Part shown: piece by piece, positions 50,893 to 52,442 of the stretch
How positions within the stretch are numbered: position 1 is the first letter of the stretch
Layout of the letters: every line of letters begins with the position of its first letter
Source: Escherichia coli O127:H6 str. E2348/69
Lineage (GTDB): Bacteria; Pseudomonadota; Gammaproteobacteria; Enterobacterales; Enterobacteriaceae
NCBI RefSeq assembly: GCF_000026545.1
Contig: NC_011601.1
DNA length: 64,000 nt
Reading direction: 5' to 3' (one strand)
Made by a program: the position numbers and the translations under genes
Notes under the pieces: model-generated
What the model saw: the letters and a program-made list of their open reading frames with translations, nothing else
What the model was told of the DNA's origin: nothing
The model's database searches: none

Positions 50893-52442
50893 CTGTCTCT
50901 TATACACAAATCCCCACCCGGGGATTTGTGATGTCTGTCAGTCTGCTTTAGGGGGACTCTTTCCATCCGGTAGTTTCCTTCCTCCCCGGCAGCGATTTTT
51001 TGAACTTTTTCCTCACCTGTTGATCTTCTCTTATATTTCATTTCCTTCGGGTCTGTTATGGTACTTTCTGATTGTTATTCATGGGCTAACGAGCAGTTTG
51101 GACATGCCCGTCTCGGTGATCCGCGTCGTACACGACGCCTTGTGTCACTGGCCTCTTCTCTCGCTCAGCATGCAGGTCTTTCTATTGTGAAATCATCCCA
51201 GTCCACTGCTCAGGTTGAAGGTGCGTACCGCCTGATACGTAACCCGTCTGTGTCCCCGCAAGCCATTGCCGAAGCCGGATTTACCGCCACTGTAAGGGCA
51301 TGTGAGGCTCATCCGCTGCTCCTCGCGCTGGAAGACACCACCACCATTAACTTCAGTCACAGTACGGCATCTGATGACCTGGGGAATACCACCACTAACC
51401 CGAAGACGCGCGGGCTGCTGGCTCACTCTGTCCTGATGTACGCCCCCGACAGCGCCCTGCCAGTCGGTCTTATCGAACAGCAGCGCTGGAGTCGTGCCAC
51501 GGACACCTACGGTGTTAAGCACCAGCGAAAAGAACGTCCCTATGAAGAAAAAGAAAGTTACCGCTGGCAGCAGGCTTCGGAGCGCATGGCCGAATGGCTG
51601 GGGGAGATACAGAAACGGGTAATCACTGTCTGTGACCGGGAAGCGGATATCTGGCATTACCTGCATTATAAAGTCAGCCACGGGCAGCGCTTCGTGGTGC
51701 GTGCAGCACAGAATCGCCGGCTGGAAGAAGCACCCGGCAAGCTCTTCGAACTGCCGGAAGTCCTGGCAACCGCGGGAAGCCACACGCTGAATGTGATGCA
51801 AAAAGGCGGGCGGGCAGCCCGCCAGGCCCGGATGTTCATCAGTTACAGCGAAGTCAGCATAAAAAATCCCGACAACAGCGGCCAGGCGCTCCCGCTCACG
51901 TATGTCTGTTGCCGGGAGCAGGCAGAGGACGGCGCCTGCTGGCATCTGCTGACGTCAGAAAAAGTGGCGAGTGCCGCCGATGCGCGACGTATCGTCAGCC
52001 ATTACGAGCGACGCTGGCTGATAGAGGAATACCACAAGGCGTGGAAAAGTGGTGGTACATGTGTGGAATCGCTGCGAATGCAGACCCGGGATAACCTCGA
52101 GCGCATGGTGGTTATCAAGGCGTTTATCGCGGTGCGGGTGCTGGGCCTGCGGCAGGGCGGTATCAGTGAAGAAACACAAAATGACAGCTGTGAGAAAATA
52201 CTGACGCCGACAGAGTGGAAACTGCTGTGGGTTAAGCTGGAAGGAAAACCGCTTCCGTCACAGATGCCGACACTGAAATGGGCCTGTCTGAAACTGGCGA
52301 AACTGGGGCGATGGCATGACAGCAAACGCACCGGTCGCCCCGGTTGGGTAGTCATGTGGGATGGCTGGTTCAGACTTCAGGATATGGTTGAGGGTTACCT
52401 GGTGATGAAGTCTCTTGATCAGGAGATCTGATCAAGAGACAG
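50893..52442 (+). mobile_element. IS4-family (IS50-like) insertion sequence, ~1550 bp
   Basis: 19-bp terminal repeats ctgtctcttatacacaaat (50893..50911) and agatctgatcaagagacag (52424..52442, reverse complement ctgtctcttgatcagatct); one transposase ORF; perfect 8-bp direct repeat ccgcccgg at 50885..50892 and 52443..52450. Confidence 0.9.
51058..52431 (+). CDS. IS4-family DDE transposase (Tn5 Tnp-like)
   Basis: 457-aa ORF alignable by eye to Tn5 transposase: LEDTT, VCDREADI and C-terminal YERRWLIEEYHKAWK (YREK signature) all present. Confidence 0.9.
   Translation: MVLSDCYSWANEQFGHARLGDPRRTRRLVSLASSLAQHAGLSIVKSSQSTAQVEGAYRLIRNPSVSPQAIAEAGFTATVRACEAHPLLLALEDTTTINFSHSTASDDLGNTTTNPKTRGLLAHSVLMYAPDSALPVGLIEQQRWSRATDTYGVKHQRKERPYEEKESYRWQQASERMAEWLGEIQKRVITVCDREADIWHYLHYKVSHGQRFVVRAAQNRRLEEAPGKLFELPEVLATAGSHTLNVMQKGGRAARQARMFISYSEVSIKNPDNSGQALPLTYVCCREQAEDGACWHLLTSEKVASAADARRIVSHYERRWLIEEYHKAWKSGGTCVESLRMQTRDNLERMVVIKAFIAVRVLGLRQGGISEETQNDSCEKILTPTEWKLLWVKLEGKPLPSQMPTLKWACLKLAKLGRWHDSKRTGRPGWVVMWDGWFRLQDMVEGYLVMKSLDQEI

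Follow-up and report, generated by a model that had tools for sequence, protein, structure and literature searches.

Members of the IS4 family share a DDE triad and a Y-(2)-R-(3)-E-(6)-K signature, and within this family the IS50 subgroup is delimited by termini of the form CW------Y---CA-A--W-, a size of 1350-1550 bp and direct repeats of 8-9 bp (De Palmenaer et al. 2008, PMC2266710, Table 1); conserved ends are an already published trait of the subgroup. In IS50, the GATC sites in the transposase promoter are sensitive to Dam in experiments (PMC4265352), and Dam methylation of transposon ends hinders transposase binding, as stated in the passages of PMC3347997 that cite Yin et al. (1988). 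The Tn5 outside end and the mosaic end, the latter an artificial hyperactive hybrid (EZ-Tn5, Nextera), contain one DnaA site each (PMC3347997). IS10/Tn10 resembles the element treated here, ISEc13, in its 5'-CT terminus, and would also resemble it in hairpin-mediated cut-and-paste and in Dam control of the transposase promoter and of one transposon end (PMC3347997, PMC4265352), but it differs in belonging to the IS10 subgroup, with other end sequences, a 9-bp duplication and antisense RNA control, and close protein similarity between it and ISEc13 was not found in this analysis.

The window, a stretch of 64,000 nucleotides from Escherichia coli O127:H6 strain E2348/69, contains one copy of ISEc13 (Table 1), which matches the E2348/69 chromosome at 100% and is annotated as ISEc13 in RefSeq; its protein has the same sequence as CAS07558.1 ('transposase of ISEc13 [E. 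coli O127:H6]') and WP_000244363.1. The element is already known, having been named since the E2348/69 genome annotation, and in the searchable literature we found its name only listed and no experiments on it. The feature that drew attention, a nearly Tn5-like terminus with clustered GATC sites, belongs to ISEc13 as its right-hand terminal inverted repeat. ISEc13 in turn is an IS50-subgroup element of the IS4 family that was active recently; in the explanation that we hold very probable, its 19-bp ends would be the sites of its own transposase and, by homology, responsive to Dam.

Table 1. Position of ISEc13 and its features in the window.
Feature	Position	Strand	Description
ISEc13	50893-52442		1550 bp; insertion sequence between 8-bp direct repeats
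Target-site duplication, left copy	50885-50892		ccgcccgg; same 8-mer directly past the right end
Left end, outside-end type	50893-50911	+	CTGTCTCTTATACACAAAT; 17/19 to Tn5 outside end
Stretch common to outside and mosaic ends	50900-50908	+	TTATACACA; read directly from sequence
Left subterminal hairpin	50905-50930	+	11-bp stem, loop ACCC; overlaps end positions 13-19
Promoter-like TTGAAC-N16-GATC	51000-51025 (GATC from 51022)	+	Candidate from family conservation
Transposase gene	51058-52431	+	457 aa; WP_000244363.1, 'IS4-like element ISEc13 family transposase'; single ORF, no frameshift
Right-end hairpin	52410-52440	+	13-bp stem, loop GAGAT; covers last codons and stop
Three GATC (Dam) sites	52417, 52425, 52430 (span 52417-52433)		Read from sequence
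Right end, inside-end type	52424-52442	-	CTGTCTCTTGATCAGATCT; 19/19 to IS50R inside end
Target-site duplication, right copy	52443-52450		ccgcccgg; matches left 8-mer

ISEc13 within the IS50 subgroup

The boundaries of ISEc13 are independently fixed by the 8-bp repeat and by the empty site in E. coli strain Z0117EC0005, in which a single ccgcccgg runs uninterrupted. Intact 8-bp duplications flank all 11 of the 11 complete, independent ISEc13 sites; a 9-bp duplication with shifted boundaries, tried by hand at four sites, gave no fit. This copy is inserted in a terminator-like palindrome between ybaY and an MGMT-family gene (ybaZ/atl). ISEc13 occupies 29 places in the E2348/69 chromosome, and three independent assemblies of this strain show 27-30 such places. 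Of 5426 complete E. coli genomes, 873 have a copy with coverage of the element of 80% or more, and roughly every sixth complete genome of the species has the ISEc13 transposase. In terminal consensus (C1, T2, T9, C13, A14, A16 and T19 in both ends), length and direct repeats, ISEc13 falls within the IS50 subgroup as delimited in PMC2266710.

Compared with IS50/Tn5, ISEc13 is of similar size (1550 bp versus 1534 bp) and likewise has one transposase gene with its stop inside the right end, two end types (the left with a DnaA-site sequence, the right with GATCs), the DDE/YREK residues, the same three protein domains, and a promoter-like arrangement in which 16 nt separate a -35-like xxGAAC from a GATC. 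It differs in its duplication (8 bp versus 9 bp), in its strong target preference for CCCCT-N8-AGGGG, whereas Tn5 has a weak 9-bp consensus (PMC2229646), in having one instead of two promoter-region GATCs, in the strong hairpins beside both ends, and in not being known in a composite transposon. IS50-subgroup elements of Vibrio, Enterovibrio and Shewanella, e.g., that of plasmid pDHO76-1 of V. parahaemolyticus (L003, 472-1977), have about 50% transposase identity to ISEc13; the left end is identical to that of ISEc13 in the Vibrio elements VpDHO76 and L008 (19/19) and nearly so in Enterovibrio and Shewanella (18/19), and the left subterminal hairpin, the right-end hairpin formed from an inverted inner copy and TTGAAC-N16-GATC are all present. 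Unlike ISEc13, these elements have the right end CTGTCTCTTGATCACAAGT with one GATC and a clear T-run after the left hairpin, and the duplication of the Vibrio plasmid copy is 9 bp long.

Conservation of the ends and of the transposase

As reference we used the authentic IS50R of plasmid pO86A1 (NC_008460.1; locus L002, 1-1534), with outside end CTGACTCTTATACACAAGT and inside end CTGTCTCTTGATCAGATCT, and the mosaic end CTGTCTCTTATACACATCT as printed in PMC2566895. The preliminary description, made from the letters, had placed the left end two nucleotides from the Tn5 outside end and had equated the right end with the IS50 inside end, and pairwise alignment agrees on both counts (17/19 and 19/19). 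The two mismatches of the left end are T for A at position 4 and A for G at position 18; T4 is also present in the inside and mosaic ends, and A18 in the left ends of a Klebsiella element (transposase 96% identical to that of Tn5) and an Aeromonas element (86%). With the mosaic end the left end likewise agrees at 17/19, sharing positions 1-16 and 19, including T at 4, and differing at 17 and 18 (AA in ISEc13, TC in the mosaic end), and each mosaic-end position is matched by at least one of the two ISEc13 ends, which are natural whereas the mosaic end is artificial. Each ISEc13 end is unique in the 64-kb window even when three mismatches are allowed, and 100 shuffles of the sequence gave no match; a chance resemblance to the Tn5 ends was therefore rejected. 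The similarity to IS50 ends exactly at nucleotide 19 on both sides, and when the whole elements are aligned (52.7% identity), only the right end reaches 19/19 among about 1630 windows. In the outside and mosaic ends, TTATACACA is the stretch with their DnaA site.

That the ends are better conserved than the protein, as had also been claimed, is true of ISEc13 (17/19 and 19/19 versus 41% protein and 53% DNA identity), but it is no peculiarity of this element. In a sample of 18 gammaproteobacterial relatives, with transposases 35-57% identical, both end types and the left/right asymmetry are kept, and positions 1-3, 5-8, 13, 14, 16 and 19 are invariant in both ends; judged by these alignments, strong end conservation is the norm of the gammaproteobacterial IS50 clade, and ISEc13 is an ordinary case.

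The description of the transposase as far from that of Tn5 fits the percentage but not the architecture. ISEc13 transposase matches the Tn5 transposase chains of the PDB over its full length at 41% identity (E = 7e-83), scores 511.6 bits with NF033590 (cutoff 160), and has a Tn5-type order of N-terminal DNA-binding domain, DDE core and C-terminal dimerisation domain (Pfam Tnp_DNA_bind, PF14706, 2.8e-19; DDE_Tnp_1, PF01609, 2.1e-7; Dimer_Tnp_Tn5, PF02281, 9.7e-5). D93, D193 and E323 align with D97, D188 and E326 of Tn5, and Y316/R319/E323/K330 form the YREK signature (Y319/R322/E326/K333 in Tn5); R210, W298 and W323 of Tn5 are also conserved, and conservation is highest in the YREK region (57%) and in the DNA-binding domain at the N-terminus (53%). 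Tn5 DNA-contact residues beyond those given in PMC2566895 and PMC2229646 serve here as illustration only; useful detail on Dam or contact residues was found neither in the review PMC7664229 nor in PMC2723962.

A Met56-type start for the inhibitor (Inh) is absent from ISEc13: M56 of Tn5 aligns with Q52, the neighbouring V53 is encoded by GTT, and the next in-frame Met is near residue 127; its regulation is therefore no simple copy of that of IS50. The nine-residue Tn5 loop VVDKRGKRK (245-253), which includes K249/R250 of the proposed target groove, is missing as well, and its loss was rejected as a sufficient cause of the 8-bp duplication, because all relatives outside the IS50 clade lack it while the Vibrio plasmid copy has a duplication of 9 bp and Pseudoalteromonas copies apparently one of 10 bp.

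GATC sites, hairpins and the promoter-like region

The three GATC sites reported at the right end lie within 17 bp and overlap the transposase stop codon (TGA, 52429-52431), which as in IS50R falls inside the 19-bp end. All three are present and form the tightest triple in the window, which holds four other triples within 30 bp, but the cluster amounts to less than three separate sites. The site at 52425 corresponds to inside-end positions 15-18 and that at 52430 to positions 10-13, so that GATCs occur within the putative transposase-binding end as in Dam-regulated elements of the IS50/IS10 type; the site at 52417 mirrors that at 52430 in the inner arm of the right-end hairpin and is therefore not independent. 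This arm (52410-52422) is an inverted copy of right-end positions 3-15, and the hairpin, which folds at -24.9 kcal/mol with z-scores of -4.8 for the plus and -5.3 for the minus strand, is kept in the Vibrio, Enterovibrio and Shewanella relatives. The left subterminal hairpin folds at -22.1 kcal/mol (z = -4.9), and in the same relatives a hairpin at the same place is accompanied by a T-run and looks like an inward-facing terminator.

The GATC at 51022, which the preliminary description missed, is homologous by position to the Dam site in the promoter of IS50. The TTGAAC-N16-GATC spacing is common to 12 of 16 family elements, and GATCs at this place in IS50 are the experimentally Dam-sensitive ones (PMC4265352). 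Since a strict sigma-70 consensus scan of 50800-52550 gave no promoter, it is family conservation that supports the candidate, from which we infer a putative ISEc13 transposase promoter at this motif.

Across the 18 elements, GATC occurs at positions 10-13 of 14 right ends and in one left end (L013). Photorhabdus elements and one Shewanella element have no GATC at right-end positions 10-13; the site is therefore dispensable for transposase binding, and its retention could reflect ancestry, not selection. In non-gammaproteobacterial relatives, at about 30-34% transposase identity, the two ends are nearly the same and both resemble the outside end (e.g., CTATCTATTACCCACAAGT, 14/19 to the outside end), again without GATC at 10-13, and the GATC-bearing end therefore seems to be a specialisation of the clade in Dam-containing hosts; in these comparisons, that gammaproteobacterial clade is where an inside end and a promoter-like region with GATCs occur together.

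By homology with IS50 we infer for ISEc13 the chemistry, the use of DnaA and the effect of Dam. The 19-bp ends would be the binding and cleavage sites of its own Tn5-type DDE transposase, movement would proceed by cut-and-paste via a hairpin intermediate, and the host-factor signals would be the DnaA-site sequence at the left end and the Dam GATCs at the right end; we propose that the ends are nearly frozen in evolution because the transposase reads the whole 19 bp and each end carries such a signal. The transposase would be kept from binding a fully methylated right end, and its synthesis from a weak promoter would fall when a GATC in the -10 region is methylated, so that transposition, as proposed, would be limited to the hemimethylated period just after replication. 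Dam control of ISEc13 is thus plausible.

Alternative explanations and significance

An alternative source of the near-identity of the ends, in place of long purifying selection on binding sites, is that IS50 and ISEc13 recombined recently or that one captured an end of the other. ISEc13 is the sole sampled element outside the IS50 clade whose right end equals the inside end at 19/19 positions, in its closest relatives the right end is CTGTCTCTTAATCACATCT or CTGTCTCTTGATCACAAGT, and both IS50 and ISEc13 are found on E. coli plasmids; however, the identity halts on either side at nucleotide 19 and no similar tract flanks it, conservation of 16-19/19 recurs in some ten independent lineages (Vibrio, Shewanella, Photorhabdus, Pseudoalteromonas, Aeromonas and others), and the ...CAGATCT variant is also present in a Photorhabdus bodei copy, all of which makes this alternative very improbable. 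Less improbable, although still unlikely, is that the GATC cluster has no regulatory role and is a by-product of the inherited end, of hairpin mirroring and of coding constraints on the last codons. The mirrored site at 52417, the relatives lacking GATC at positions 10-13 and the absence of dam data for ISEc13 from the searchable literature would fit such a by-product; yet the identical 19-bp end is Dam-sensitive in IS50, according to the passages in PMC3347997 citing Yin (1988), the enrichment concerns right ends (14/18) and not left ends (1/18) in Dam-containing gammaproteobacterial hosts, distant relatives have no GATC at positions 10-13, and the promoter-like region has an independent conserved GATC of its own.

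A laboratory source, either a mini-Tn5 insertion or contamination by Nextera mosaic-end adapter, comes to mind from the first 16 nt of the left end, which equal the Nextera/mosaic-end sequence, but both ISEc13 ends differ from the mosaic end, the transposase that the element itself encodes is just 41% identical to that of Tn5, target duplications occur at 11 different sites, and copies are found at 27-30 places in the three assemblies and in the 873 genomes; this origin was rejected, and we give it practically no credence. The same 16 nt have a practical consequence: adapter trimmers with a short seed would clip real reads at every ISEc13 left junction.

The ISEc13 ends are compatible with recognition by Tn5 transposase in a sequence-level test, and action of the laboratory enzyme on them, as had been suggested, is plausible by homology. 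Wild-type Tn5 transposase may synapse ISEc13 ends, and laboratory forms may do so on unmethylated DNA. Functional cross-compatibility at the ends, in which Tn5 transposase would synapse and also cut ISEc13 ends and ISEc13 transposase would accept a mosaic-end mini-Tn5, is a tentative reading of these sequences, and we consider it somewhat doubtful. As a discovery the finding is of small importance, with some practical relevance: strains with ISEc13 contain many chromosomal look-alikes of Tn5 ends together with a putatively expressed relative of Tn5 transposase, and the stability or interpretation of Tn5-based mutagenesis in them could be affected. If cross-compatibility is true, ISEc13 transposase would be a natural Tn5-like enzyme with mosaic-type ends, an 8-bp stagger and CCCCT-N8-AGGGG sites, and would offer a ready comparison for the residues that set target choice and stagger in Tn5-type transposases.

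ISEc13 and its ends

The interval 50893-52442 matches NZ_LT827011.1 434893-436442 (enteropathogenic E. coli O127:H6 E2348/69 chromosome) at 100% identity and is the insertion sequence ISEc13 (IS4 family, IS50 subgroup), which lies between ybaY and a convergent MGMT-family gene (ybaZ/atl). The RefSeq product name of its ORF is 'IS4-like element ISEc13 family transposase', and the original E2348/69 genome annotation has 'transposase of ISEc13'. Because an 8-bp repeat flanks the element on both sides and the uninterrupted ybaY/atl site (aaccctctCCGCCCGGagagggtt), a terminator-like palindrome, was found in another E. 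coli strain, the boundaries drawn in the preliminary description are correct. The unrelated strains SCU-115 (locus L125), RM14723 (L128) and 2015C-4136CT1 (L129) carry ISEc13 at the identical site, with the same orientation and duplication, and some of these copies are only 98% identical to that of the window; the shared insertion points either way, to an old, vertically inherited event or to a hotspot that was hit repeatedly. Elsewhere in the window (about 55842-56394; L001 10950-11502), RefSeq annotates maa (maltose O-acetyltransferase) of E2348/69 as a frameshifted pseudogene.

Coordinates of ISEc13 and its features in the window
Feature	Position	Description
Insertion sequence ISEc13	50893-52442	1550 bp, one ORF
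Transposase ORF	51058-52431	457 aa
8-bp direct repeat ccgcccgg	50885-50892 and 52443-52450	flanks ISEc13
Left end	50893-50911 (+)	outside-end type
Right end	52424-52442 (-)	inside-end type
-35-like TTGAAC	51000-51005	
GATC starts	52417, 52425, 52430	right-end region
Stop codon TGA	52429-52431	within right end, exactly as in IS50R
Right-end hairpin	52410-52422 pairing 52428-52440	13-bp stem, loop GAGAT; z = -4.8 and -5.3
Left-end hairpin	50905-50930	strong, overlaps left end; z = -4.9

Reference ends were taken from the IS50R copy of plasmid pO86A1 (outside end CTGACTCTTATACACAAGT; inside end CTGTCTCTTGATCAGATCT), and the mosaic end (CTGTCTCTTATACACATCT) was used as printed in PMC2566895. As proposed earlier, the left end of ISEc13 (CTGTCTCTTATACACAAAT) departs from the outside end at only two of 19 positions (4 and 18) and the right end is identical to the inside end (19/19); the mismatches of the left end to the mosaic end are at positions 17 and 18. 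Within the 64-kb window neither 19-mer has a second match at <=3 mismatches, and shuffled sequences gave no match. Aligned over the whole elements, ISEc13 and IS50R are 52.7% identical in DNA, the right end being the sole 19/19 window, and on either side the similarity breaks off sharply at nucleotide 19. The ends are thus conserved far more strongly than the protein, which is 41% identical to Tn5 transposase (183 of 446 aligned residues).

The transposase and the wider family

The view that this protein is far from Tn5 transposase was not borne out: solved Tn5 transposase structures match it over its full length (E = 7e-83), its NF033590 score is 511.6 bits (cutoff 160), all three Pfam domains of the Tn5 enzyme (Tnp_DNA_bind, DDE_Tnp_1, Dimer_Tnp_Tn5) are present, and the alignment shows that the DDE triad, the YREK motif and R210 are kept. 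In Tn5 transposase the R210/Y319/R322 triad grips the 5' phosphate of the non-transferred strand (PMC2566895). Identity is highest, at 53% and 57%, in the N-terminal DNA-binding domain and around YREK, and drops to 22-23% at residues 201-300 and 370-420, the pattern that would be expected if the parts of the protein that read the ends were constrained jointly with them. Tn5 has a start codon at Met56, whereas ISEc13 has none at that position and therefore no Tn5-type inhibitor protein.

Scanning a single genome from each species gave 80 loci encoding relatives, and ends could be defined for 18 gammaproteobacterial elements (Escherichia, Klebsiella, Aeromonas, Parashewanella, Shewanella, Vibrio, Enterovibrio, Photorhabdus, Pseudoalteromonas and two metagenome-assembled genomes) whose transposases, close variants aside, are 35-57% identical to that of Tn5 or ISEc13. 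Their left ends match the outside end at 16-19 of 19 positions, with one exception, their right ends match the inside end equally well (16-19/19), and positions 1-3, 5-8, 13, 14, 16 and 19 are invariant. The left ends (...TT(A/C)TACACAA(A/G)T) are without GATC in 17/18 elements and the right ends carry it at positions 10-13 in 14/18, a conserved asymmetry. In two Vibrio elements the left end is the same as in ISEc13, and their transposases are ~50% identical to the ISEc13 enzyme. Given such ends throughout the family, the near-identity of ISEc13 ends to those of Tn5 is the normal state of the clade, and the clade ends agree with the consensus published for the IS50 subgroup (CW------Y---CA-A--W-, direct repeats of 8-9 bp; PMC2266710). 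Two ISEc13 variants were also seen, one of 1564 bp on an E. fergusonii plasmid (L104 222-1785; left end CTGTCTCTTATACACAAGT, 18/19 to the outside end) and one of 1539 bp in MS20658 (L135; 96% identical), in which the transposase gene is frameshifted and the two ends and all five GATC sites are retained.

More remote relatives from Chloroflexi, Calditrichota and other phyla, at about 30-34% transposase identity, have two near-identical ends of the outside-end type, and one example (CTATCTATTACCCACAAGT) still agrees with the Tn5 outside end at 14/19 positions, which shows deep conservation of the end sequence; none of those examined has GATC at end positions 10-13. It is a fair inference that the outside-end type is ancestral and that the GATC-bearing right end may be a specialisation of the lineage in Dam-containing Gammaproteobacteria. 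In these remote relatives, which come from metagenome-assembled genomes (L028, L033, L035, L037, L040, L042, L043), the ends have the form CT(A/G)TCTATTACCCACA(A/T)(G/C)T.

Dam sites, hairpins and a palindrome

The right-end GATC triple is the tightest in the 64-kb window and overlaps the transposase stop codon as described; what was observed of the ends holds in every detail. All three sites are present, but the one at 52417 is not independent, because the inner hairpin arm repeats end positions 3-15 in inverted orientation and this site mirrors the GATC at positions 10-13. More informative is a GATC at 51022, which the preliminary description did not mention, exactly 16 nt past the -35-like TTGAAC; the spacing xxGAAC-N16-GATC recurs in 12/16 family elements, including IS50R (CGGAAC-N16-GATCTGATC). 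The region is probably where the whole clade has its Dam-sensitive transposase promoter; a strict sigma-70 scan found no promoter in ISEc13. IS50 has two promoter-region GATCs, whereas ISEc13, like the Photorhabdus elements, keeps only the first. In IS50, Dam represses the transposase promoter through its two GATCs, and expression is ~19- to 25-fold higher in dam mutants (PMC4265352); according to PMC3347997, citing Yin et al. (1988), GATC methylation in transposon ends inhibits transposase binding. Each half of the IS50 Dam circuit thus has a counterpart by position in ISEc13, in the right-end sites and in that at 51022. Dam control of the element is likely but unproven, and the searchable literature yielded no experiments on ISEc13. 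The arrangement TTGAAC-N16-GATC(N)GATC is kept in 12/16 IS50-subgroup elements (window 51000-51025; 5' regions of L002-L010, L017, L021 and L104).

The right-end hairpin covers the last transposase codons (..KSLDQEI*) and the stop codon, and relatives at ~50% transposase identity (right ends of L003, L008, L009 and L010) have the same arrangement with an inner arm encoding ..MSLD..; it could stabilise the 3' end of the mRNA, act as a barrier to transcription or offer the transposase a decoy site. The second strong hairpin of ISEc13, at its left end, is among its differences from Tn5. In Vibrio, Enterovibrio and Shewanella relatives, a hairpin at the place of the left-end one is followed by a T-run and looks like a putative terminator that shields the transposase gene from outside transcription, which would make sense because the element destroys terminators on insertion.

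A 35-bp perfect palindrome (CTGTCTCTTGATCAG-GAGAT-CTGATCAAGAGACAG) is located in the trmL-lldD spacer of an E. coli B derivative (L130 299-333); it occurs in 792 of 5426 complete E. coli genomes, among them this strain and ATCC 8739, and holds three GATC sites and an IS50 inside end in its full 19-bp length. It appears to be a relic of ISEc13 that might have arisen by deletion between 7-nt direct repeats (GTCTCTT) found at nt 3-9 of the left end and in the inner hairpin arm. The K-12 allele (L133) has about 80 bp instead, with a perfect ISEc13 target.

Target choice and possible cross-talk with Tn5 tools

All 11 complete independent ISEc13 insertion sites examined show an 8-bp target duplication, in contrast to the 9 bp of Tn5. 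At every site the duplicated 8 bp are directly preceded by a C-rich pyrimidine 5-mer and followed by a G-rich purine 5-mer, with the palindromic consensus CCCCT-N8-AGGGG (11/11; window 50877-50892 and 52443-52458; L085-L088, L108/L109, L120-L126); eight more left-only junctions agree, and the targets often lie in stems of intergenic terminator-like hairpins. This bias is strong, whereas Tn5 has only a weak 9-bp preference (PMC2229646); no description of the ISEc13 motif was found in the searchable literature. Nine residues of Tn5 transposase (VVDKRGKRK) are missing from that of ISEc13, and K249/R250 within them belong to the proposed Tn5 target groove (PMC2229646). As the sole setter of the stagger this loop was rejected, since it is also missing in relatives that make 9-bp duplications. 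Apparent duplications are 10 bp in Pseudoalteromonas copies (L015, L022, L024), as against 8 bp in ISEc13, and 9 bp in a Vibrio plasmid copy (L003) and in Shewanella L021.

Laboratory Tn5 transposase had been suggested to act on this element, and at the sequence level the ISEc13 ends pass as Tn5 transposase ends: T4 of the left end is the base of the inside and mosaic ends, and A18 also occurs at the left end of a Klebsiella and of an Aeromonas element (transposases 96% and 86% identical to that of Tn5). Each mosaic-end position is matched by one or other ISEc13 end, so the reverse reaction, ISEc13 transposase on mosaic ends, is equally plausible. With the E54K change, laboratory Tn5 enzymes prefer outside and mosaic ends to the inside end, and Dam methylation blocks inside-end use in dam+ cells; the chromosomal ISEc13 would thus serve poorly as a substrate in vivo and better as unmethylated DNA in vitro. 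Over its first 16 nt (50893-50908) the left end of ISEc13 also coincides with the first 16 nt of the Nextera/mosaic-end adapter. Every ISEc13 left end contains the 12-nt seed CTGTCTCTTATA used by some adapter trimmers, so trimming could clip genuine reads there in ISEc13-bearing genomes. The preliminary description is accurate and its interpretation partly supported, yet the element is catalogued and its property family-wide and published; the interest lies mainly in practical cross-talk with Tn5 tools and in the side observations on target choice.
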